From: Candidatus Latescibacterota bacterium
GTDB taxonomy: Bacteria; Latescibacterota; UBA2968
NCBI GenBank assembly: GCA_965116885.1
Contig: OZ220741.1
Location: 2,656,001 to 2,720,000, forward strand
Direction: 5' to 3'
DNA length: 64,000 bases
Shown here: positions 15,350 through 31,981 of the stretch, in pieces
How the letters are laid out: every line of letters starts with the position of its first letter
Numbering within the stretch: position 1 is the stretch's first letter
Made by a program: the position numbers and the translations under genes
Notes under the pieces: generated by a model
Told to the model about the DNA's origin: nothing
The model's input: only the letters and a program-made list of their open reading frames with translations
The model's database searches: none

Positions 15350-16225
15350 TCATTTCCAGTACTTATCGTATAGAAGACCGAGTCTTTCTTTTGCCGCGTT
15401 GGAAATTGCATCTGGCGATGTGATAATCGCAAATTGTGCGGCATTGAGACAATCGCAATCCGATGTTCTGGGCAACTGTGCGGCCAATGTACATACAATT
15501 TGATTTGCGTGCTCGGCATTGGCTTTTAACACAGCGACTACGGCTTCTACCGACACATCTTCTTCTGCTTCATGCCAGCAATCGTAATCGGTGCCCATAG
15601 CCAGCATCGCATAACACATTTCGGCCTCGCGTGCGAGTTTGGCTTCGGGCAAAGCCGTCATTCCAATCACGGTCGCATTGACTTCTCGACGATAAAAATG
15701 GGACTCTGCGCGTGTGGAGAATTGCGGTCCCTCCATACAGATATACGTTCCACCATCGTGGGTGGTTACTCCGGAGTTTTTTGCAGCAGCCAGCAGTAAG
15801 TCGCGCAATTCGCCGCAAAAAGGATCCGCAAAGGCCACATGGCCGGCAATGCCTTTACCAAAAAATGTGCTCGCACGGATGCCGCGGGTGCGATCAAAAA
15901 TCTGGTCGGGCACCACCATATCACCCGGTTTTATAGCTTCCCGCATAATTCCCACAGCACTTATCGACAACAGATGTGTCACGCCCATCTGTTTCATGGC
16001 ATATACATTGGCGCGATAGGGCACTTCAGAAGGCAGCAGCACATGTCCACGTCCATGACGGGGCAAAAAATATACCGATTGGTCGCCTATACGCGTTTCG
16101 ACAACGGCATCTGAAGGCGCGCCAAAAGGTGTGGCAAGGCGATGTTCGGCTACGATTTCCACACCTTCCATGTGATAAACACCAGATCCGCCCATAACAC
16201 CCAGTCGAACAATCTGTTCAGGCAT
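15350..16225 (-). CDS. mtnP: S-methyl-5'-thioadenosine phosphorylase
   Basis: GVMGGSG, PRHGRGH, PYRAN, EGPQFSTRAES, GMTALPEAKLAREAE, TDYDCW. Confidence 0.93.
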   Translation of the reverse strand: MPEQIVRLGVMGGSGVYHMEGVEIVAEHRLATPFGAPSDAVVETRIGDQSVYFLPRHGRGHVLLPSEVPYRANVYAMKQMGVTHLLSISAVGIMREAIKPGDMVVPDQIFDRTRGIRASTFFGKGIAGHVAFADPFCGELRDLLLAAAKNSGVTTHDGGTYICMEGPQFSTRAESHFYRREVNATVIGMTALPEAKLAREAEMCYAMLAMGTDYDCWHEAEEDVSVEAVVAVLKANAEHANQIVCTLAAQLPRTSDCDCLNAAQFAIITSPDAISNAAKERLGLLYDKYWK

Positions 16226-16739
16226 TTTCGTCGTCCTGATCTGTGGTGTCATCTTCTATTTCGGGAATATTCTCTTTTACCACATCGAAGGTCGTCATTT
16301 GAAATTGGTCCAAAAAATCAGTCTGACCCTGTACCAGGGCCTTAAATTTGGACAAGAACATATTGCGTTGATTTTGTAACTCTACAAGCTCTGTGCGGAT
16401 TTCCTGCACCTGTGTGCGCGCTTTTTCAATAGCCCGATTGCTGCGGATTTCCGCTTCTTTCACAATCAGCCGCGCTTCTTTGTGCCCATTTTCCTTGACT
16501 TCTTCAGCCGTTTGTTGAGCAGTTCTGAGCATTTCCTGGAGGGTTTGCTCTATTGACTGATAGTGATGCACTTCTGATTGCAACGCATTGAGAAATTCTT
16601 TTAGTTCGATATTCTCGGAGTTGAGATGTTCGACTTCTGTCGCCAGCGTTTCGAGAAATGTCTGCACTTCTTCTTGATCATAACCGCGAAAAGATTTCTT
16701 AAAAATCTGTTTGCGAATATCCTGTGGTGTGATGTTCAC
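16218..16739 (-). CDS. divIVA: DivIVA domain protein
   Basis: ITPQDIRKQIFKKSFRGYDQEEVQTFL followed by coiled coil. Confidence 0.92.
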   Translation of the reverse strand: MNITPQDIRKQIFKKSFRGYDQEEVQTFLETLATEVEHLNSENIELKEFLNALQSEVHHYQSIEQTLQEMLRTAQQTAEEVKENGHKEARLIVKEAEIRSNRAIEKARTQVQEIRTELVELQNQRNMFLSKFKALVQGQTDFLDQFQMTTFDVVKENIPEIEDDTTDQDDENA

Positions 16740-21054: not shown

Positions 21055-22536
21055 TCAATGCTTGATCAAGTGCTTTTCCAGGGTTTTGACCACGGTTTTT
21101 AGCGTTTTAATGCGCGCATATAGCTTGCAATTGGACTCGACAATGGTCCATGGTGCGTAATCTGTATTTGTGCGGTACAACATCTCATCCACAGCGTCGC
21201 GATACTGATTCCATTTCTCTCGATTGCGCCAGTCTTCATCTGTAATTTTCCACTGTTTAGATGGGACTTCTTCGCGGTCTCGAAAGCGCTTCAATTGTTC
21301 GTCTTTGTCGATATCGATCCAGAATTTAAATAATAAGGTGCCGTAATTTGCCATCTGTTCTTCCATTTCGTTGATTTCGCGGTACGCGCGCTGCCATTCC
21401 TGTATTGTCGCAAATCCCTCTACGCGCTCGACCAGAACGCGCCCATACCACGACCGATCAAAGATGGCAAAATGACCGGCTTTGGGCATTTTGATCCAGA
21501 ACCGCCACAAATAGTGATGTGCCAGTTCGATATCATTTGGCGCGGCGATGGGGATCACGTCGTATCCACGCGGGTCCATGCGGCGCACCAGGCGTTTGAT
21601 ATTGCCTCCCTTTCCCGCAGCATCCCAGCCTTCGTACACAATGACGACGGACTGCCTTCGCAAATATACTTCGTGCTCGAGTTCCCATATCTTTTTTTGA
21701 TAAATGCGGCGCAGGCGATCGTATTCTTTGCGCGTGAGTTCTCTGGATAAGTCAGAGGTCTCGAGCATAGAATGCGGGATTGGGGGTAGGGAGACCGCTT
21801 TGGTCCGCGTCTTTTTGTTCAGAGATGTCAGTTTTTTTTCGAGGACTTTGATCACTTTTTCAAATACTGAAATCGTTGCAAAACGCCAGTTTTCAGCCGG
21901 CACAATATGCCAGGGCGCGTATTTGCTATCCGTGCGTGAGATCATTTCTTCGATGACTTCTCCATACGATTCGTATTGTTTATTTTTTTTCCAATCGTAA
22001 TCTGTTACGCGCCAGGACGTCAGGGGATTTTTCTCGAGTTGCTTAAAACGCTTTTTTTGTTCTTTGCGCGAGATGTGCAGGAAAAACTTGATGATTACAT
22101 GGCCGTCATCTACGAGTTGTCGCTCGAAATTATTCACTTCTTGATACGCTTTATCAACCGGTAGCTTGCTCATCATCGGATCTAATTTCTCCACAATAAA
22201 TCGACTGTACCAACTCCGACCGTAAATCGCCAGGCGCCCGCGTTCGGGGATTTTGGTCCAGAACCGCCACATAAATGGTCGGTAAGCCTCTTCTGTATTG
22301 GAAACTTGCGTCGAATATACTTTGACGCCCCGGGGATCGAGCACTTGCAACAACTCATTGATCTGTCGTCCTTTACCAGAAGCACCCCAGCCTTCGAACA
22401 CAATCGTGATGGGCACTTTGTTTTCCAGTGCTTTTCGCTCCAGTTGGCCCATTTTTATTTCCAGCTTTTCCATTTGGGCGTTGTAGTCAGATTTTTTTAT
22501 TTTTTGTTTTAGATCAATAGCATTCAGGATGCCCAT
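21055..22536 (-). CDS. pap: Polyphosphate:AMP phosphotransferase (two-domain PPK2, class II-like)
   Basis: Tandem PPK2 domains: FEGWGASGKG/YGRSWY and YEGWDAAGKGG/FDRSWYGRVL. Confidence 0.92.
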   Translation of the reverse strand: MGILNAIDLKQKIKKSDYNAQMEKLEIKMGQLERKALENKVPITIVFEGWGASGKGRQINELLQVLDPRGVKVYSTQVSNTEEAYRPFMWRFWTKIPERGRLAIYGRSWYSRFIVEKLDPMMSKLPVDKAYQEVNNFERQLVDDGHVIIKFFLHISRKEQKKRFKQLEKNPLTSWRVTDYDWKKNKQYESYGEVIEEMISRTDSKYAPWHIVPAENWRFATISVFEKVIKVLEKKLTSLNKKTRTKAVSLPPIPHSMLETSDLSRELTRKEYDRLRRIYQKKIWELEHEVYLRRQSVVIVYEGWDAAGKGGNIKRLVRRMDPRGYDVIPIAAPNDIELAHHYLWRFWIKMPKAGHFAIFDRSWYGRVLVERVEGFATIQEWQRAYREINEMEEQMANYGTLLFKFWIDIDKDEQLKRFRDREEVPSKQWKITDEDWRNREKWNQYRDAVDEMLYRTNTDYAPWTIVESNCKLYARIKTLKTVVKTLEKHLIKH

Positions 22537-22538
22537 AT

Positions 22539-23663
22539 TTACTCCTTTACCCATGTGCGTGAGTCGGGTACGTATAGCCACGCGCCGTCTTGCACAATTG
22601 ACTGTTGACTGATTAAGCCCGGCAAGGTCATGTCCATAGCTTCGTGAATGCCAATTGGACAGGCGATTTCGCCGTTGATGCTTTGAATAAAATCCATGAT
22701 TTCGAAATAGTCGCCCCCACCGTGTCCGGCTTTTAATGCCGATTCAGAGGGGTTGCGCCACATGTCGGGTAAATAGTCTTCTTCCAGATCTTTCAGATCT
22801 ATCCATTCGTTTTTTTCGTCGCAGATATCTGTGAGCCATACGCGATTGACACCGCCGCGTGCGCGCGCCGATTCGTAACACCCTTTTGTCCCTTGCAGTT
22901 GAAAATTGCCGGTTGCGTGGGGGCGTTCCGATAGCATATCTACCCGGATTTTTACCAGCCCGCCGCTCGCCATCTGACACAACATGACGCACGAATCTTG
23001 ATTTTCATACTGGTCTCCCCGAGGGTCTGTGTAATGGTGTCCGCTGCCCGCACAACACACGCGCACCACGCGGTCCCCCGGCATCCACTGCAAGAGAGGT
23101 CCCAGGCTGTGCGTGCAATAGGTTATACCATCAATGCCCGTTTGCCACTTGCGCCGCCATGTTGTGATTTCATTCAGGGCTTTCAATTCGTGGAGATATT
23201 CTCCTTCTCCGTAATATACATCGCCGAACAAACCCCGCCGCACGAGTTCTTTTATCAGGACATTGGGGCGGGTGTAGGTGTAATTTTCTGCCATCATATA
23301 GATTGCTTTTGACGATGTAGCGGTCTGTACCAGGGCGCGGCATTCCTCTATGGAGACCCCGGCTGTGACTTCGCTCAAGACGTGGATGTTGCGGTGCAGT
23401 GCCTCAATTGCTTGCTGAGCGTGAAAATGCATGGGTGTGCCGATGACTACTGCATCGAGTTCAGAGCGCGCGAGCATGGTTTCGTAGTCCGCGTATTTTT
23501 CAGAGGCTCCCAATCGTTCAGCAGCAGCGTCGAGTTCCTCTTCGCGCACATCGCATACCGCGTGAATGCGCGCTGTTTTTTGCGCTTCAAAAGCGACCCG
23601 AAAACTCCCCCCACGCCCAGCAGCCCCCACAATACCCACGTTTAATTTTTCAGCAATGCCCAT
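22539..23663 (-). CDS. Gfo/Idh/MocA oxidoreductase
   Basis: VGIVGAAGRG, HVLSEV, MMAENY, YCTHSLGP, GHGGGD. Confidence 0.92.
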   Translation of the reverse strand: MGIAEKLNVGIVGAAGRGGSFRVAFEAQKTARIHAVCDVREEELDAAAERLGASEKYADYETMLARSELDAVVIGTPMHFHAQQAIEALHRNIHVLSEVTAGVSIEECRALVQTATSSKAIYMMAENYTYTRPNVLIKELVRRGLFGDVYYGEGEYLHELKALNEITTWRRKWQTGIDGITYCTHSLGPLLQWMPGDRVVRVCCAGSGHHYTDPRGDQYENQDSCVMLCQMASGGLVKIRVDMLSERPHATGNFQLQGTKGCYESARARGGVNRVWLTDICDEKNEWIDLKDLEEDYLPDMWRNPSESALKAGHGGGDYFEIMDFIQSINGEIACPIGIHEAMDMTLPGLISQQSIVQDGAWLYVPDSRTWVKE

Positions 23664-25443: not shown

Positions 25444-25531
25444 TTTGAAACCAATATTTCGCTTGAGAATCTCATAGGCAGGACGGAGGGCCAGTTATGC
25501 CTCTTCCGCTAACCGCTTTCAGGAGTTTAAA

Positions 25532-25927
25532 ATGTCAGAATATTTCAATACAGTCAAATCTTATCTTCAAGACCTCAATCTCGCGGTTGACGAGGAAGAT
25601 ACCGCTGAAGAACTCGTTGTGGTGAGCGACGAAGATCGCGGTGTCAATCATCTTATTGTCGATTGCGAGGATCCCATCCTCATTATTGAGCAGGCTATTA
25701 TGCCTATTCCCAATGTCCCTGGGGATCTGTACAAAAGGTTGCTCGAAATGAATCGCACACTCATCCACGGGGCGTTTGCCCTGGACTCTGAAACCGGCAC
25801 GGTTCTTTTTCGCGATACCCTGCGCCTGGATACGCTCGACCGATCTGAGCTTGAAGGCTCGATTACCGCGCTCGAACTCGCCTTAGCTGATAATGCCGCA
25901 GAATTACTCGAATATAGCCACCAGTAG
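25532..25927 (+). CDS. YbjN/CesT-like chaperone-fold protein
   Basis: 131 aa acidic protein with LYKRLLEMNRTLIHGAFALD...VLFRDTL; lies directly upstream of pspA. Confidence 0.8.
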   Translation: MSEYFNTVKSYLQDLNLAVDEEDTAEELVVVSDEDRGVNHLIVDCEDPILIIEQAIMPIPNVPGDLYKRLLEMNRTLIHGAFALDSETGTVLFRDTLRLDTLDRSELEGSITALELALADNAAELLEYSHQ

Positions 25928-25951
25928 TCATTTCCCAAAAAGGAGTATCTC

Positions 25952-26662
25952 ATGAGCATCTTTCAACGTCTCTTCAGTGTGGGCAAGGCCGAAGTCCATT
26001 CGACTATTGACAAATTTGAAGATCCGATAAAAATGACCGAACAGGGTATCCGCGACCTGAAAAATGACCTCAATAGCGCGATGACCAGCCTGGCTGAGGT
26101 CAAAGGTCAGGCCATTCGATTGCGAAAGCAAGCTGAAGACAATAAGAAGGCGTCTGCTGACTGGGAGCGTAAGGCCATGGTTTTGCTCCAAAAAGCCCAG
26201 AGCGGTGAGTTGGATGCTGGAGAAGCCGACCGGTTGGCAACCGAAGCCCTTAGTCGCAAATCAGAGGCCGATGACCGCATTTCTCAGTTTGAGCAGGATG
26301 CCGAGATGCAGGAAGATATGGCCACTAAGCTTCAAAGTCAGGTGGAGAAACTCAAATCTACCATTGCAACACACGAAAATGAACTCATTTCACTGCGCGC
26401 GCGGGCAAAAACAGCCGCTGCGACGAAGAAAATCAACAAGCAACTCGCCAAAGTCGATTCGTCTGGTACAATTGCCATGCTCGAGCGTATGAAAGAACGG
26501 GTTGAAGAAGATGAATCGCTCTCGCAGGCTTATGGCGAAATAGCCGGTGAATCCAAGAGCGTTGATGAGGAGATTGATGCGGCACTGAGTACTTCATCGA
26601 GCGGCACAGATCAACGCCTTGCTGAACTCAAGGCAAAGATGGGGATGACTTCGAAAGACTGA
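25952..26662 (+). CDS. pspA: PspA/IM30 (Vipp1/ESCRT-III-like) protein
   Basis: MSIFQRLF amphipathic helix, EDPIKMTEQGIRDL, long coiled coil, LAELKAKM end. Confidence 0.95.
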   Translation: MSIFQRLFSVGKAEVHSTIDKFEDPIKMTEQGIRDLKNDLNSAMTSLAEVKGQAIRLRKQAEDNKKASADWERKAMVLLQKAQSGELDAGEADRLATEALSRKSEADDRISQFEQDAEMQEDMATKLQSQVEKLKSTIATHENELISLRARAKTAAATKKINKQLAKVDSSGTIAMLERMKERVEEDESLSQAYGEIAGESKSVDEEIDAALSTSSSGTDQRLAELKAKMGMTSKD

Positions 26663-26742
26663 CGCTGGGTGTGCCTGTAGGGGAGACGCTCGCGCACCCG
26701 TTCTATCTGTCGCAGAAGGTTCATGGGTTGCATGGAGAGAAA

Positions 26743-27300
26743 ATGAATTGGAATCCTTTTAAGAAAAAGAAAGAAGAACCCGAAGCTCTCGATCCCCTCA
26801 GTGTTACGCTGTCCGATCTCAAGCTGGGTTATGTCCTCGACTACGATCTCAAAACATGGCAGGTTACAGCACAGCATTATTACGATTACGAAGGTGATCG
26901 CGCGGATGAATGGGAACTTACCTGCGGCGATGATGTGGCATTTCTCGAGCGGTCAGAAGACGATAGTATCTCCTGGGCCTTGACGCGCAAGATCCCCCTT
27001 TCCGATATTGAGGGCGATGTCCGCGGGCATATGCGCGACCACGACAATGATGATCCTCCCGATGAAGTTAGATGCCATGGGATTATGTTCTATGGCGTAT
27101 CGTCAGCCGTTGGATCTTTTTACAAAGATGGCGGGGACGAGGGACAGAAGTTTATCATCTGGAATTATCTCGACGAGTCGGAGAAACACACCCTATCTAT
27201 CGAGCAATGGGACGAAGACGCTTTTGATGCTGCGGTGGGTGAGGTTGTCGAAGAATATCAATTTAGCAATATCCTGCCGTCAGTAGCCAGTAGTCAGTAG
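26743..27300 (+). CDS. DUF4178-like acidic protein
   Basis: LKLGYVLDYDLKTWQV, EWEL, LSIEQW pattern and position after pspA; GGAGA RBS before ATG 26743. Confidence 0.7.
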   Translation: MNWNPFKKKKEEPEALDPLSVTLSDLKLGYVLDYDLKTWQVTAQHYYDYEGDRADEWELTCGDDVAFLERSEDDSISWALTRKIPLSDIEGDVRGHMRDHDNDDPPDEVRCHGIMFYGVSSAVGSFYKDGGDEGQKFIIWNYLDESEKHTLSIEQWDEDAFDAAVGEVVEEYQFSNILPSVASSQ

Positions 27301-27390
27301 TCAGTTGCTGGCCCGCTTAACCGCCCCAAGCTATTAGCGGTCAGCCAGCCTCTTGCCTCTCATCTGCGTCCATCTGCGTCCATCTGCGGA
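27280..27390. repeat. Composite short-repeat element at a convergent junction
   Basis: About 3.5 TCAGTAG units, CCGCTTAACCGCC, GCCAGCCTC and about three CATCTGCGTC units. Confidence 0.8.
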
Positions 27391-27404
27391 TACTTTTCTC
27401 GTCT

Positions 27405-28931
27405 TTACTCAAACCCCCATTCTGATTTCCGATAGTAGCGATCCACTGTCGGCTCCATTTCTGTGCTGACTTCGATTGCGTGTTTTTCATCGAACATGCC
27501 CTTCCAGAAGTGCAACATGCCCCGCATTGCTTCTGCATTCAAAAATTGCGTTTCAATATTCTCAAAGGTGAGTTGTTGCGTTCGTTGAACGAGGTCCATT
27601 TCTTCGGTTTTCATTCCCAATACCCATCCCCAATCTCCCATCGTTGGTATATAGGTGTGATAGGGGATTGTCGAAAAGCCAGCGTCTGTCATCGTGCGCT
27701 CAATGCACAGAAAAGCGAGGCGCGCGTTGAGAGGACTCGACGCCTGGGTTACCAGTACGCCGTCGGGTGTTAAGTGACGCGCGCAGAGGCGATAGAATTC
27801 CCGCGAATACAATCTGGCGAGGTCCGGTCCTTTGGGGTCGGGCAAGTCGATGATGATGATGTTGAATAACGCTTCTGAATGCGCCAAAAATGCGCCCGCA
27901 TCCCCGATTACTACGTTGACACGCGGGTCGTCCAGTGCCCGTGTATTCGCTTCCACAAAGACCGGGTGTGTGCGCGCCAGATCGATTATCGCTTTGTCCA
28001 AATCTACCAGGGTAATCGCTTGTACATCTGCATATTTTATTACTTCTCGCACAGCGAGTCCATCCCCCCCGCCTAAGATGAGTACGTTGTTCCGCGATCC
28101 CGATAGTTTCATGGCCGGATGTACCAGTGATTCGTGATAGCGTTCTTCGTCATAGGTGCTGAATTGCACGTTGCCATTTAAGTGCAGCCAGTGGTGGCCT
28201 TTCCATTCTGTTATGACAATGCGTTGATAAGCGGTCTGGTCTTGATAGACTACGCGGTCGCGATACCGACTTTGCTCGCCCCATATTACAATGGGACGGA
28301 TATAAAGCCCCAGTACCAGAAGGCCCGCGCCCAGGGTCCAGAATGCCGTCAATAACAGCCAGCGACGCGCCAATAAGTGCCGATATTGCCACAGCAATAC
28401 CGATGCTACGATAAAGTTAATCGCGGCCAACGCCAGCGGTGTGTACGTCAGGCCCAATTCTGGCAATAAAAAAAAGGCGAACAATAGTCCGCCGATCAAG
28501 GCGCCAAAATAGTCTTTTTCCATCACTGAAGCGATGTTGGTGCGCAGGTCCTGATATGCTTCGTTCATGCGCGCGACCAGCGGAATTTCCATGCCGATGA
28601 GCACGCCGATTGCAAAAGCATAGCTATAGATGAAAACACCTGCCGATAACGCGAGTACCGATCCAAAATACGCCACAACCGCACAGGTGGCGCACAGGAC
28701 CGAGAGATAAAATTCGATTGCGATAAAGCGATCCAGCAACCTGTCCGTCAACAATCGGCTCCATCGGCTGCCCAATCCCATGGCAAATAACATCAACGAC
28801 ATGAGCACGGCCCACTGCAATGTCGTGTTGCCCAATAGATAGCTCGCCAGCGTTGACAATGTAAATTCCGCCACAATGCCGGCACATCCCGTGGCGAATA
28901 TACAGGCTTTTAAGAGATAGCTCTGTCGCAT
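27405..28931 (-). CDS. speE: Membrane-anchored polyamine aminopropyltransferase (spermidine synthase with multi-TM N-domain)
   Basis: About seven TM segments, then YQRI, DEERYHESLVHP, ILGGGDGLAVRE, IIIDLPDP, LYSREFY. Confidence 0.93.
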   Translation of the reverse strand: MRQSYLLKACIFATGCAGIVAEFTLSTLASYLLGNTTLQWAVLMSLMLFAMGLGSRWSRLLTDRLLDRFIAIEFYLSVLCATCAVVAYFGSVLALSAGVFIYSYAFAIGVLIGMEIPLVARMNEAYQDLRTNIASVMEKDYFGALIGGLLFAFFLLPELGLTYTPLALAAINFIVASVLLWQYRHLLARRWLLLTAFWTLGAGLLVLGLYIRPIVIWGEQSRYRDRVVYQDQTAYQRIVITEWKGHHWLHLNGNVQFSTYDEERYHESLVHPAMKLSGSRNNVLILGGGDGLAVREVIKYADVQAITLVDLDKAIIDLARTHPVFVEANTRALDDPRVNVVIGDAGAFLAHSEALFNIIIIDLPDPKGPDLARLYSREFYRLCARHLTPDGVLVTQASSPLNARLAFLCIERTMTDAGFSTIPYHTYIPTMGDWGWVLGMKTEEMDLVQRTQQLTFENIETQFLNAEAMRGMLHFWKGMFDEKHAIEVSTEMEPTVDRYYRKSEWGFE

Positions 28932-28934
28932 ACT

Positions 28935-28979
28935 AAAATAATAAAACAACTCGGAGGGCTATAAACACCCGCCGAGTTG
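28935..28979 (-). terminator. Intrinsic terminator after the retropepsin gene
   Basis: Stem CAACTCGG...CCGAGTTG followed on the minus strand by TTTTATTATTTT. Confidence 0.6.
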
Positions 28980-28995
28980 GAAAGAGTTAATCGGG

Positions 28996-29379
28996 TTAGC
29001 GCAAGGAAATATCACCTTGCAGAAAGTCAATTATTAAAATTTGTCCACGTAGAAAATCCAGGCCCAAAAGCCCATCAACACTCGCACTCGGTGGCAGTGT
29101 ATGAGCAAGTACAGGGAAATTATCTCGTGTCTGCCCCAATGCTTGAAATCGGGTGACCAATAAACGCGGTGTGTATTCAACACCACTTCCCGTCGTGACT
29201 TGAACGCGATCAGGTGCTAATGAGGGATCGTATCCAATTGTTGTTAGTGGTGCGACATTAATCATCGTTCCTGTCGCACCAGTATCCAATGCGAGACGCA
29301 AAACAATACTGCCTGAAGGCCCGAAAACCTCAGCCTGAATAACGATAAGGCCGCGCAAAGGATTAAATATATCATTCAT
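28996..29379 (-). CDS. Retropepsin-like (clan AA) aspartyl protease
   Basis: LDTGAT and GLLGLDFL motifs; single domain, 127 aa. Confidence 0.9.
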   Translation of the reverse strand: MNDIFNPLRGLIVIQAEVFGPSGSIVLRLALDTGATGTMINVAPLTTIGYDPSLAPDRVQVTTGSGVEYTPRLLVTRFQALGQTRDNFPVLAHTLPPSASVDGLLGLDFLRGQILIIDFLQGDISLR

Positions 29380-29603
29380 AGTACGACCGCAGTATCTTCT
29401 GGGATTTCACCAGTATAGACAATTGCAGATCGTTTAGGTCGCAAAGCTACTGCTTTCCGATAAACTTCGTCCCGGTCCTTGCTATGGTGAAGAATTTTAC
29501 CTTTTAAGACCTCAAGCGTATCATTTGTTTGAGGATTCTCGACCAGTACCCATTCCGACTCAAATTGTGCCCTCATTTCTTCGACTGTCATGATGTTATC
29601 CAT
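29376..29603 (-). CDS. Small protein (DUF5678-like) coupled to the retropepsin
   Basis: AAGGAG RBS; 75 aa with EWVLV...GKILHHSKDRDEVY; ATGA overlap with the protease. Confidence 0.75.
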   Translation of the reverse strand: MDNIMTVEEMRAQFESEWVLVENPQTNDTLEVLKGKILHHSKDRDEVYRKAVALRPKRSAIVYTGEIPEDTAVVL

Positions 29604-29616
29604 CTTTGCTCTCCTT

Positions 29617-29694
29617 TTAGTCGAATGTATCGGTAGCCTCATTCTACCAAATTTCGCGCACTGGAATTTTCTTTAATTCCCCAAAGTTATTCAT
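29617..29694 (-). pseudogene. Remnant 5' end of a DUF4268-like gene
   Basis: AAGGA RBS then MNNFGELKKIPVREIW*NEATDTFD*; resembles the LGKL.KV.LRE.W..EA.DF N-terminus I recall for that family. Confidence 0.5.
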
Positions 29695-29706
29695 TTCTGT
29701 CCTTTT

Positions 29707-30552
29707 TCACAAACTCCACACAATCAGGAACGATGCGCCGATATAAGATGTGGCTTCGATGAAGCCCGCGGCCAGGTTGGGGTGTTCTTGATTGGCGATT
29801 TCATCGGTCAGTTTTTGTCCGGGTAAGAGGATTACGTCGGAGATGAGTCGAACGATGGGTAGCAAGATCAATCCCGCGACGACTTCGATTGCAAAGTCCT
29901 GTAGATTTACAGCCCAGGAAATAAAATTGCCCGCCGATGCGTGAAACACGATGACGCCAATACCGACCAGTGCGCCTGCAAAAGCGACGCCTGCGGCGAC
30001 GTTGTCTTTTTCGATTTCATCGTGTATGCTATACGGGGTAATCCATTCGTACATCAGTCCGGCCAATACCAGGGCGAGTTGGCCCAATGCCCAGAAAATC
30101 ACGGTTGTCACAATTCCGCCAATCTCACCCGATACGGCGCCAAAGATTACCAGTCCCGTTGCGATATACGACGCGGCGACCACAACACCCGTACCCGCGT
30201 TTTGATCGTCGATCAATTCATCCCGAACTTTGAATCCGTGTAAGATCAATCCGTCATTGACCAGACGAGACAGATTGAGCAAGATGATCGCCAGCAATCC
30301 GTATATGCCGATGTCGATCAAATCGTTTTCCAATCCCTGCGATGGCCCAGATAGGGTGCCGCCGATGGCCATGATCAATCCGAAGAAATATCCCGCCATG
30401 GCCACACCCAGTGCGACGTTGTCTTTTTCTACGAGTTCTTCCCGCACGCTGTAACTCGTTGTCGTCAAGTCTTTGACCAATTTGCCGATCCAGAATAATA
30501 CAAACGCGCTGATGAGATAAATACCCGTTGCAATCAAATCTTGTAAAATCAT
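29707..30552 (-). CDS. DUF350 membrane protein (two repeats)
   Basis: EELVEKDNVALG and DEIEKDNVAAG repeats with many TM segments. True start is ATG 30552, overlapping the upstream stop. Confidence 0.85.
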   Translation of the reverse strand: MILQDLIATGIYLISAFVLFWIGKLVKDLTTTSYSVREELVEKDNVALGVAMAGYFFGLIMAIGGTLSGPSQGLENDLIDIGIYGLLAIILLNLSRLVNDGLILHGFKVRDELIDDQNAGTGVVVAASYIATGLVIFGAVSGEIGGIVTTVIFWALGQLALVLAGLMYEWITPYSIHDEIEKDNVAAGVAFAGALVGIGVIVFHASAGNFISWAVNLQDFAIEVVAGLILLPIVRLISDVILLPGQKLTDEIANQEHPNLAAGFIEATSYIGASFLIVWSL

Positions 30553-31280
30553 TTTCCAAATCCTCCAAAGCTGCGGCTGCCAAATCCTGATCGGCTGCGA
30601 CTTGTTGAACGCGAGCTTCCAAAGCCGGTCCGACTCTGGCTCGTGCGACTTTGCACTTTTTGTGCGAATGATTGTCTTTTTTGCGCTATGTTTGCCTGGC
30701 GCCGCTGGAATGTCGTTGGTTTTTGTTTTTGCGTGACAGATCCCTGCGTGCCATACTCCCGATTGCGCCCGTAATACGGACGTTGATCTCGGCGATAAGA
30801 CCGATAATCGTCGTAGTCGTAGCGACTCATGCCAAATCCGCCGCCCCAACCGAGCAAATGACTCATGAGCGCGTATTGGCCGTAGAATTCCCAGAACGAT
30901 GTGCCTCCGCGATCCGTCCAACGCCCGTAGCTCGAATTGCCCACATAGTGGTATCCGGGGGGATGTGGCGTGTTGTTGACGCCATCTTGCTCAGATTTGG
31001 CAACGAGTGCCATTCCCAAAAACGGTTCGTATTTTCGATAGATGGATTCCGATACTTCTATCCAGTCCGATTGTACCTGTTTTTCGCCCTGTGTTATTAA
31101 ATACCGGTGATAATACGTGGTGAAAAGAGAGCCTTCTTCGCGCATGTCATCCAGTACAATCATATATGCCGGTGCCGAGGCCAGCGATTTTTGCATTTCG
31201 ACGACGGGATCGCGTTCGCCGCCGCATCCGGACAACAACAATAGGCCGACCAGCAAGATCGGCAATCGTTCTCGTGTCAT
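30549..31280 (-). CDS. Lipoprotein with Gly/Ser/Arg-rich tail (PspA-locus associated)
   Basis: GGAGG RBS, lipobox LLSGC, GYHYVGNSSYGRW, SFWEFYGQYA, RSGFGSRSFGGFGK end. Confidence 0.85.
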   Translation of the reverse strand: MTRERLPILLVGLLLLSGCGGERDPVVEMQKSLASAPAYMIVLDDMREEGSLFTTYYHRYLITQGEKQVQSDWIEVSESIYRKYEPFLGMALVAKSEQDGVNNTPHPPGYHYVGNSSYGRWTDRGGTSFWEFYGQYALMSHLLGWGGGFGMSRYDYDDYRSYRRDQRPYYGRNREYGTQGSVTQKQKPTTFQRRQANIAQKRQSFAQKVQSRTSQSRTGFGSSRSTSRSRSGFGSRSFGGFGK

Positions 31281-31325
31281 AATTTCCTCCAAAAAAGATA
31301 TTCACATCGCTTTTGTGAACTTTAC

Positions 31326-31766
31326 TTATTCGACATCAGAATCTTCTCCATCTACTTCCGACTTGATTTGCTGATCTTCAAAACCCCAAAAATCCGATGG
31401 TTTCAGAATCGGGATATTTTCAAAATATTCGAGATCAAGTAAGTCTTTGTCACCAGAGATCAAACAGTCTGCCTGTGCTTGTTTCACACTTAAAAGCACA
31501 TGATTATCATCTTCATCCCGGGATACGGATGGCAGCGTTCCTTCTAATTGGAAGTGTTCACTAATTTCCAGTATCCAAGATTCGACTTCTCGAATACGGT
31601 CTGGCGTGTATTGAAATCGAGTTGCGAGTTTCTCTGTAACTTCGTCTAAAATCCAGTCAGATATCACTAATTGATGTGTACTTAGACAATAATCAATAAG
31701 TTCAGCACAAGCGCCTCGTGTGATTAATCCAGCGATCCAGACATTGGTATCCAGCAAAATTCTCAA
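31326..31766 (-). CDS. PIN-domain toxin (VapC-like)
   Basis: RILLDTNV, RDEDDNHVL, ISGDKDLL. Confidence 0.92.
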   Translation of the reverse strand: MRILLDTNVWIAGLITRGACAELIDYCLSTHQLVISDWILDEVTEKLATRFQYTPDRIREVESWILEISEHFQLEGTLPSVSRDEDDNHVLLSVKQAQADCLISGDKDLLDLEYFENIPILKPSDFWGFEDQQIKSEVDGEDSDVE

Positions 31767-31981
31767 GAAATTCTCCTAAATACATCTTCATCTGTATAAA
31801 CGCCCTGAGCTTGTGCCTGAGGAATCATTACGCGCCTGAGTCGCTGAAATTCTTCTCTTTGAAGATATTGTCGGAGAGCTTCGCTCACCACTTCGTTGCG
31901 AGTGATCTGGGCAGTCTCAACCATCTGGTCCAATCGTGTACGCAACGAACCAGGTAAACTAATCTGAATCGTATCTTTCAT
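31763..31981 (-). CDS. Ribbon-helix-helix (CopG-like) antitoxin
   Basis: ISLP..L...LD, RNEVVSEALRQYL, TDEDVF; overlaps the PIN start. Confidence 0.88.
   Translation of the reverse strand: MKDTIQISLPGSLRTRLDQMVETAQITRNEVVSEALRQYLQREEFQRLRRVMIPQAQAQGVYTDEDVFRRIS

Follow-up and report, generated by a model that had tools for sequence, protein, structure and literature searches.

A PspA-linked locus with a membrane-fused aminopropyltransferase and a lysine-ended lipoprotein tail as its candidate acceptor

Introduction

We analyzed a locus built around a membrane-fused aminopropyltransferase in a 64,000-nucleotide stretch (hereafter the window) of the genome of a Candidatus Latescibacterota bacterium (GenBank assembly GCA_965116885.1, contig OZ220741.1, positions 2,656,001 to 2,720,000), which is available as a single contig of 5.56 Mb that is 98.4% complete. 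The public runs that contain this stretch are mostly sponge metagenomes. At the locus, an enzyme that joins a transmembrane (TM) domain to a SpeE-type catalytic domain (TM-SpeE) lies together with PspA, a CesT/Tir-like protein, a DUF4178 protein, a DUF350 membrane protein, and a lipoprotein, and this set almost certainly belongs to a module that has been published and remains uncharacterized. While the locus is one more ordinary copy of that module, what is new here is a concrete candidate for the acceptor of the enzyme, namely the terminal lysine of a Gly/Ser/Arg-rich tail that accompanies TM-SpeE on otherwise unrelated proteins. Thousands of bacterial genomes, those of mycobacteria included, encode membrane-fused SpeE-like enzymes (more than 7,000 such proteins at E ≤ 1e-20 among 8,000 candidates tested).

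Results

Gene content of the locus

Eight open reading frames (ORFs) occupy positions 25532 to 31292 of the window and form two convergent units, CesT/Tir-like-PspA-DUF4178 on the forward strand and lipoprotein-DUF350-TM-SpeE on the reverse strand, the latter with two inserted genes between DUF350 and TM-SpeE (Table 1). All six genes named in an earlier note on this DNA, made from the letters alone, were recovered by Pfam and NCBIfam searches where that note had placed them, but the two inserted genes had been overlooked. The pspA gene directly follows the CesT/Tir-like gene after a gap of 24 nt, its ATG preceded by an AAGGAG site. For the DUF4178 gene, whose ORF is open from a GTG at 26671, the ATG at 26743 is the likelier start and is preceded by a GGAGAG site. 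On the reverse strand, the listed DUF350 ORF (to 30921) is over-extended, the true ATG lying at 30552, where the stop of the lipoprotein gene overlaps it as AAATGA. PspA of the window aligns over residues 1 to 231 to solved Vipp1/PspA structures (best 8qfv, E 5.3e-17) and lies far under the equivalog of E. coli PspA (TIGR02977, 67 bits vs a cut-off of 242.95); the structure search returned no solved relatives of the DUF4178 or of the CesT-like protein. Scanning the locus for promoters and terminators gave counts close to those of shuffled sequence (13 vs 9.7 and 11 vs 6.1).

Table 1. Positions of the genes and other features at the locus and around it, counted from the first letter of the window
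Feature	Position	Strand	Evidence
Small protein of chaperone fold, CesT/Tir-like (YbjN-like), 131 aa, first gene in the forward unit	25532-25927	+	Pfam CesT_Tir_1 E 6.8e-46; YbjN 3.8e-10
PspA/IM30 (ESCRT-III superfamily), 236 aa	25952-26662	+	Pfam PspA_IM30 E 2.7e-46
DUF4178 protein (185 aa when counted from ATG 26743, the likely start)	26743-27300	+	Pfam DUF4178 E 1.5e-18
Short decamer repeat (three tandem copies) between the two convergent units	27361-27394		Terminator-like match 27372-27391
TM-SpeE, multi-TM aminopropyltransferase, 514 aa	27405-28949	-	NCBIfam NF002956 573.7 bits vs cut-off 472
Clan-AA aspartic-protease-like gene, inserted, 127 aa	28996-29379	-	Pfam Asp_protease_2 E 6.9e-10
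Inserted 88-aa gene, weakly DUF5678-like	29376-29642	-	Pfam DUF5678 E 0.025, under the threshold
Membrane protein of two tandem DUF350 units (YjfL family), 281 aa, ~8 TM	29707-30552	-	Pfam DUF350 E 3.3e-55, two stretches
Lipoprotein, 247 aa	30549-31292	-	Lipobox LLLLSGC; no match to any Pfam family up to E 5
PIN-domain toxin and ribbon-helix-helix (RHH) antitoxin pair	31326-31981	-	TIGR00305 63 bits (PIN)
mtnP	15350-16252	-	TIGR01694 293.3 bits vs cut-off 274.85
Two-domain PPK2 (polyphosphate:AMP phosphotransferase)	21055-22581	-	TIGR03708 632 bits

Contigs from public sponge RNA libraries, in which DNA may be present, follow the two units. Single contigs bridge CesT-PspA-DUF4178 (25553-27823 and 25469-27872), with contigs from three studies, and the DUF350 and lipoprotein genes are bridged by contigs from two of the same three studies (X16 and X18; 29704-31103 and 30061-30839), the junction of these two genes being covered by X15 as well. 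One further contig joins 28991 to 29700 and thereby skips the insert, with only 24 letters on one side of the joint. Stretches of speE are free of contig cover, which in such libraries is no evidence of silence. At the decamer repeat, many of these contigs break, and the summed depth there reaches 61-139 vs 10-42 in the adjacent bins; tandem copies of the repeat occur at ~23 sites genome-wide.

We found the arrangement of the six genes to be conserved beyond chance. TM-SpeE scored above its cut-off in 38 of the 41 genomes of the order, and when 19.9 kb around the gene were searched by tblastn in 20 of the TM-SpeE-bearing genomes, 18 relatives showed the full set of six, arranged convergently as in the window; the same gene set also occurs in Binatia and Acidobacteriota. 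This co-occurrence, which the earlier note had made the check on its claim that the six genes form a unit, supports that claim. By contrast with the six, the aspartic-protease-like gene was matched in none of the 20 relatives and the 88-aa gene only by a partial match of 46 aa in one. As the lengths of the DUF350-SpeE and SpeE-DUF4178 gaps vary among relatives, the region appears to be an insertion hotspot, and the two inserted genes look like a small mobile two-gene cassette that stands outside the conserved module.

A lysine-ended tail accompanies the enzyme

The window lipoprotein combines a beta-rich domain, a long basic helix (residues 192-221), and a disordered Ser/Arg/Gly tail that ends in GGFGK (AlphaFold2 (AF2) model, mean predicted local distance difference test (pLDDT) 78). 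A Gly-Lys C-terminus was found in 38 of 38 homologues, which comprise the window protein, those of the 20 relatives, and those of 17 further loci from Binatia, Desulfobacterales, Nitrospinaceae, Acidobacteriota, and Planctomycetota, and in an alignment of 25 sequences the lipobox cysteine C23 and the terminal G246 and K247 were invariant. The fold of the domain itself gave few leads: Foldseek against the PDB returned nothing at E ≤ 0.001 (best 0.057), a wide VIA-align search gave a best Z of 5.0 with small beta-barrels only, and the ESM Atlas yielded unnamed clusters only, with a 0.85 lead to UPF0323.

For a broad survey, we used an alignment search with TM-SpeE over contigs of one genome per species, keeping the best 80 of 596 confirmed relatives from many phyla, and searched the ORFs of these loci with iterated profiles that started either from proteins of the window or from Pfam-verified seeds. 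Next to TM-SpeE, a Gly/Ser/Arg-rich tail ORF recurred on unrelated carriers, ending in GK or, in modules of the Band-7 type, in HK. Depending on lineage, the carrier is a lipoprotein of the window's family, a DUF4247 lipoprotein (Bacillaceae), a long DUF4178-TM fusion (Clostridia), or a microprotein of 49-95 aa (Chloroflexota, Acidobacteriota, and others). Under strict tail criteria, 53 of 3119 ORFs near TM-SpeE qualified vs 1 of 3756 ORFs farther off in the same loci. Upon counting tails per module type in loci with at least 2.5 kb upstream, we found a tail ORF in 16 of 16 PspA-type modules, in 8 of 8 Band-7-type modules, and in 26 of 28 modules with DUF350/DUF4178 only, where one miss was a cut contig and the other an ORF-overlap artefact (the lipoprotein there ends in SSGK). 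Overall, the tail was present in 50 of 52 modules vs 1 of 10 orphan TM-SpeE loci. As a hydrophobic segment was seen in 22 of 23 tail carriers, N-terminally in 21 of them (as a signal peptide, lipobox, or single TM helix), the carriers look exported.

Core and accessory parts of the module

Neighbor counts were taken from the 48 of the 80 loci that have at least 5 kb upstream and at least 3 kb downstream of TM-SpeE. DUF350 was the most frequent neighbor (35/48), followed by DUF4178 (33/48), S-adenosylmethionine decarboxylase (AdoMetDC; 16/48), PspA (15/48), lipoproteins of the window's family and amine oxidases (10/48 each), Band-7 proteins (8/48), and CesT-like proteins, DUF4247 proteins, and RCK potassium channels (6/48 each, the last, for example, in Calditrichaceae locus L035); 7 of the 48 loci had none of these families. 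Of 175 candidate ORFs, 93 (in 16 loci) were run against Pfam, which confirmed their labels, and because the iterated DUF350 profile drifted (178 hits), the counts stem from overlap-cleaned hits that were spot-checked in this way. PspA and Band-7 never occurred in one locus. Together, these counts and the mutual exclusion of PspA and Band-7 point to TM-SpeE, DUF350, and DUF4178 as the stable core, whereas PspA and the CesT-like protein form one scaffold cassette among several that can stand in for each other, Band-7 taking its place elsewhere. Hence, the view of the earlier note that the locus centers on PspA does not hold across the survey. For DUF350, the tie to the enzyme extends to a natural DUF350-TM-SpeE fusion of 814 aa (P0120).

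The frequent presence of AdoMetDC inside the module (e.g., in Snodgrassella L077, Bacteroidota L093, and Thiotrichaceae L097) supports a real use of decarboxylated S-adenosylmethionine (dcSAM) by the enzyme. In Band-7-type and related modules (L077, L093, L064, L083, L087, and others), flavin amine oxidases with twin-arginine signal motifs lie downstream of TM-SpeE; judged by eye, ~14 of 18 amine oxidases carry such twin-arginine translocation (Tat) signals, and the module amine oxidases are thus probably exported. A search for longer TM-SpeE homologues gave five matches, two of which are fusions of SpeE with an amine oxidase that retain a Tat-like hydrophobic segment between the domains. We considered these fusions as evidence for a shared compartment and rejected them, as they resemble read-through of neighboring genes.

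The enzyme and its membrane domain

TM-SpeE consists of a TM domain (residues 1-226) and a SpeE fold (232-509), modeled with high confidence (AF2 pLDDT 92, predicted template-modeling score 0.82), with the Pfam Spermine_synth match at residues 268-450 (E 2.9e-43). Its closest solved relatives are the triamine/agmatine aminopropyltransferase structures of Thermus thermophilus, 1uir and 3anx, both by sequence (phmmer E 5.3e-36) and by structure (Foldseek E 2.5e-18 at 33-34% identity, with 1uir, 3anx, 6qmm, and 1jq3 falling between 1e-16 and 1e-18); with the whole model as query, Foldseek returned matches to the catalytic domain only. Among 45 sequences from many phyla, 34-70% identical to the window protein, the catalytic half keeps Q262, D267, E268, Y271, H272, E273, the GGGDG motif at 293-297, D316, D318, and D350 invariant, as well as D368, P370, D371, and P372 of a DxxDP motif. 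D371 aligns with the second Asp of DxxDP, which we take to anchor the distal amine of a diamine, and the roles of the other single residues in the dcSAM-binding and catalytic motifs are likewise presumed ones. Comparing the SpeE columns of modules with HK-ended and with GK-ended tails separated the two only at position 500 (P or Q), which is uninformative. The TM half, in which E28, E79, E121, P123, R127, N129, D146, Y147, and N178 are invariant, is as conserved as the catalytic half and is therefore likely to be more than an anchor.

The distribution of positive charges suggests that the TM domain spans the membrane seven times and places the catalytic domain outside. Over the same 45 sequences, the mean number of Lys plus Arg residues alternates between 2.38 at the N-terminus, 0.27 in loop 1, 2.60 in loop 2, 0.29 in loop 3, 3.13 in loop 4, 0.89 at residues 160-172, and 3.64 in loop 5, and the stretch past the last helix is net acidic. 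A 963-aa paralogue in the same genome carries the TM unit twice in tandem and keeps the Arg/Lys-rich loops 2 and 4 in both copies, while its copy 1 ends right after its hydrophobic region of 54 residues; as the charge bias is the same in both copies, copy 1 would need an even number of spans, which would make the long region a hairpin. The AF2 model disagrees with this topology, its helices (assigned by DSSP) lying at 7-39, 42-66, 71-99, 103-131, 135-188 as one continuous helix, and 196-226.

Polyamine genes and PspA copies elsewhere in the genome

The genome holds one AdoMetDC gene (speD; TIGR03330 147.6 bits vs a cut-off of 75.65). A profile search of the genome found no canonical soluble SpeE, and the other Spermine_synth hits were the 963-aa protein (MFS_SpdSyn plus TPR), an 824-aa fusion, and a weak 221-aa protein; likewise, no NspC scored over its cut-off genome-wide (45 bits vs 409). 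With the two larger paralogues outside the window (963 aa, C1:1147588-1150479, reverse strand; 824 aa, C1:4054569-4057043, forward strand), the genome encodes three membrane-fused SpeE-like proteins in total.

Regarding mtnP, which the earlier note had suggested could recycle the methylthioadenosine (MTA) by-product of the enzyme, we confirmed the gene itself, 11.2 kb from speE, and found its link to the locus weak, as it sits among housekeeping genes for Nudix, DksA, DivIVA, and YggS proteins. Plausibly, it is an MTA sink for any chemistry that derives from S-adenosylmethionine rather than a specific partner of the locus. The absence of pspB and pspC that the note had seen at the locus was found to extend to the whole genome, where neither PF06667 nor PF04024 has a match. 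Two further PspA paralogues lie elsewhere in the genome, in other contexts; at the third PspA copy (L003, C1:2284085-2287702), the gene is followed by one for a protein with a weak Slo-like RCK match.

Close to the locus, the PIN/RHH pair adjoins the lipoprotein gene and is found in few relatives only (L016, and RHH alone in L012). The PPK2 gene, upstream of recJ, is ordinary and unlinked to the module.

Discussion

The reading that we favor, tentatively, is that TM-SpeE transfers aminopropyl groups from dcSAM, with the lysine at the end of the tail as the most likely acceptor. That the enzyme performs dcSAM-dependent aminopropyl transfer at all is very probable, a judgment that we place beside its intact SpeE motifs and fold and the bona fide AdoMetDC of the genome, while for the terminal lysine of the tail protein as the acceptor we see a little under an even chance. 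TM-SpeE would take the aminopropyl group from dcSAM and put it on the epsilon-amine of the terminal lysine (here Lys247), not, or not only, on free putrescine, and the modified tail would thereby gain a spermidine-like tip. DUF350 would act in the same membrane complex, and PspA, its CesT-like partner, and DUF4178 would stabilize the membrane at the site of modification or report on it. The earlier note had proposed an envelope-stress system that makes polyamines at the membrane or aminopropylates a membrane-associated target such as the lipoprotein; within that proposal, the lipoprotein as target gains support from its Gly-Lys end (38/38) and from the tail in the modules (50/52), whereas PspA loses its central place.

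Several observations weigh against the aminopropylation of the tail as we describe it. The acceptor itself is one that we infer from sequence, and as D371 is invariant, a free diamine or polyamine would suit the active site better than a residue that bears a carboxylate. TM-SpeE is also the only equivalog-level aminopropyltransferase of the genome, speD lies 438 kb away from the locus, two of the 20 relatives (L015 and L018) keep lipoprotein-DUF350-SpeE without the CesT-PspA-DUF4178 triad in the fetched stretch, and the DUF350-SpeE fusion is known from one sequence. A further difficulty concerns compartments. If residues 135-188 form a continuous helix, as in the AF2 model, the TM domain would have six spans, with the N- and C-termini on the same side and the catalytic domain inside, and as the carriers look exported, enzyme and tail could then lie on opposite sides of the membrane; if, instead, the catalytic domain is outside, dcSAM must cross the membrane. 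We know of no precedent for dcSAM crossing a membrane or being used beyond the cytoplasmic membrane. The analogy with E. coli that we draw below shares this problem: YjfC and YgiC are soluble ATP-grasp enzymes that need ATP, and the lipoproteins that are their candidate targets are exported.

A bolder form of the tail reading, which we hold to be doubtful, would make TM-SpeE an extracytoplasmic protein-lysine aminopropyltransferase. Here, the acid-lined 7-TM domain (E28, E79, E121, and D146) would pass dcSAM outward, the domain on the outer face would modify Lys247, and, in Band-7-type modules, the Tat-exported amine oxidase would act further on the tip. An external catalytic domain would share its side of the membrane with the exported tails and amine oxidases, and the end product would be of the same kind as the one that YjfC and YgiC would make on the Gly-Gly ends of DUF1190 lipoproteins.

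Foremost among the alternatives is that TM-SpeE is the spermidine (or longer polyamine) synthase of the lineage, with a TM domain that anchors the enzyme or exports its product and with the tail protein, DUF350, and PspA responding to or binding the polyamine. We regard this as somewhat unlikely. The enzyme may simply supply the spermidine of the cell, because it is the sole equivalog-level aminopropyltransferase and there is no NspC route in a genome that does have a bona fide SpeD; its presence in nearly the whole order (38/41), the invariance of all its diamine-type active-site residues, D371 included, and the invariant acidic TM residues, which would suit a polyamine path, fit such a role as well. 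A constitutive housekeeping SpeE, which the earlier note had named as the outcome that would speak against its proposal, thus stays a rival. It leaves unexplained, however, why a Lys-ended exported tail is found on unrelated carriers in 50 of 52 modules and why it is so scarce at orphan enzymes (1/10), and the comparative study of the module (PMC11237479) points to Li et al. 2019 on substrates of another kind being aminopropylated.

An amine-bearing lipid or envelope glycan that is aminopropylated at the membrane surface, with the tail protein and DUF350 as accessory parts, is an improbable acceptor in our estimate: the conserved TM domain with its polar invariants (E28, E79, E121, R127, N129, D146, and N178) does suggest handling of a substrate within the membrane, and the module is linked with the membrane-stress scaffolds PspA and Band-7, but it contains no conserved gene of lipid or glycan metabolism, and the feature that tracks the enzyme is a protein tail. 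Very improbable is an anchor of the type known from the E. coli lipoprotein Lpp, in which an L,D-transpeptidase joins the terminal lysine to peptidoglycan and which would be chemically unconnected to SpeE: the invariant C-terminal lysine and long flexible tail of the lipoprotein would fit such an anchor, but the same tail also occurs on single-pass microproteins of 49-95 aa and in Bacillota and Chloroflexota, is concentrated near TM-SpeE (53/3119 ORFs vs 1/3756 far from it), and has no conserved transpeptidase gene beside it in the module.

If the tail is indeed the target, as in the reading that we favor, its aminopropylation would be a new bacterial post-translational modification, giving a polyamine-tipped envelope protein connected with PspA, with Band-7, and with the machinery of membrane stress. 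If, in addition, the catalytic domain lies outside, this would to our knowledge be the first case of dcSAM being used beyond the cytoplasmic membrane.

Comparison with known systems

The closest published counterpart of the locus is the "second major group" of CesT/Tir-PspA operons that Ravi et al. 2024 (mSystems, PMC11237479) described comparatively, with Shewanella oneidensis SO_3765/SO_3766 as an example. As listed there, its parts are a 7TM spermine/spermidine-synthase-like fusion, an 8TM YjfL/DUF350 protein, a lipoprotein (Ctha_1186, with a "Low-comp" tail), and DUF4178, and the supplement also lists the Rv2597 operon of mycobacteria. The study presents the group as uncharacterized and proposes a link of polyamines or aminopropylation with membrane dynamics. 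This agrees with the statement of the earlier note that such neighborhoods have been noted comparatively and not characterized mechanistically, and our literature searches found no mechanistic study either. The word "lysine" does not occur in the main text or the supplementary table of PMC11237479, so the Lys-ended tail apparently falls outside the published description.

With the second group, the locus shares the gene set, including the CesT/Tir-like protein, PspA, the multi-TM Spermine_synth protein, YjfL/DUF350, and DUF4178. Its layout differs, as the second group forms one co-directional operon, whereas the locus and its counterparts in relatives have two convergent units, and in the window DUF350 is separated from SpeE by two unrelated genes. 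We therefore file the locus as a member of the second group with a rearranged layout, its gene content having been kept. The Ctha_1186 lipoprotein may have its counterpart in the window lipoprotein, whose lipobox, position, and low-complexity tail fit and which matches no Pfam family. The RHH gene near our locus belongs to the PIN/RHH pair; some operons of the second group also close with an RHH gene in the account of Ravi et al., and this may in certain cases represent a similar pair.

From the canonical Psp system (E. coli pspFABCDE), the locus shares the PspA/IM30 family protein, with its full-length match to PspA/Vipp1 structures, and differs in having no PspB or PspC genome-wide, a PspA below the equivalog cut-off, and other partners. 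Compared with the SpeE of T. thermophilus (1uir, 3anx), the window enzyme has the same dcSAM and acceptor motifs; the T. thermophilus protein, however, is soluble, has no TM domain, and acts on free agmatine and polyamines, whereas the window enzyme is membrane-fused. Another related type is that of the fused proteins of the major facilitator superfamily (MFS) and spermidine synthase studied by Li, Kurihara, Kim, Liang, and Michael in 2019 (Biochem J 476:2579), which reportedly co-occur with AdoMetDC and are linked with DUF350. These MFS-fused relatives are said to fail to complement an E. coli speE mutant, and an acceptor other than putrescine was reportedly proposed for them. While that type is MFS-fused, the window enzyme has a single TM unit and falls into the shorter PRK03612 type (NF002956).

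A further comparison is with a sister system of E. coli, yjfIJKLMC and tolC-ygiBC. Its parts parallel those of the locus in a CesT-like protein (DUF2170), the PspA-family protein YjfJ, the DUF350 protein YjfL, a lipoprotein whose tail is rich in Ser, Arg, and Gly, and an enzyme of polyamine chemistry. That enzyme is an ATP-grasp ligase, beside a DUF1190 lipoprotein that ends in Gly-Gly and a DUF2491 protein, whereas the locus has an aminopropyltransferase, a Gly-Lys end, and DUF4178; among the eight ORFs of our locus, no match to a glutathionylspermidine-synthetase-like ATP-grasp or to DUF1190 was found, the lipoprotein giving no DUF1190 match at E ≤ 5. RefSeq names the products of both yjfC and ygiC peptide--spermidine ligase, and a 2025 review (PMC11762307) states that YgiC has peptide-spermidine ligase activity (citing Pederick et al. 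2023, Biochemistry 62:899, work also taken up in PMC12568646) and that the physiological substrate of YgiC/YjfC is unknown.

Directly upstream of these ligases, the genes for the lipoproteins YjfM (L109:12388-13026) and YgiB (L110:3745-4416) encode proteins that end in SSSARGHWGG and SSRSMGG, respectively. Of the near full-length YjfM homologues, which come from Enterobacteriaceae only, 34 of 41 have a GG end. A DUF1190 profile search listed 150 representatives at 50% identity, of which we examined the 140 with new identifiers; among the 123 with a length of 160 aa or more, the C-terminus is GG in 104 and GS in 13, and the motif reads SRGGFG...ARGSWGG. This tail resembles that of the window lipoprotein, RSRSGFGSRSFGGFGK. 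Our literature searches found no paper that links the ends of YgiB or YjfM to the ligases, and we propose the Gly-Gly tails of DUF1190 proteins as a candidate physiological substrate of YjfC and YgiC. A Gly carboxylate amidated with spermidine and a lysine that has received an aminopropyl group would converge on the same -(CH2)n-NH-(CH2)3-NH2 arm. Overall, the Lys-ended tails of the SpeE type and the Gly-Gly-ended tails of the ligase type offer one concrete candidate answer to the substrate questions of both systems.

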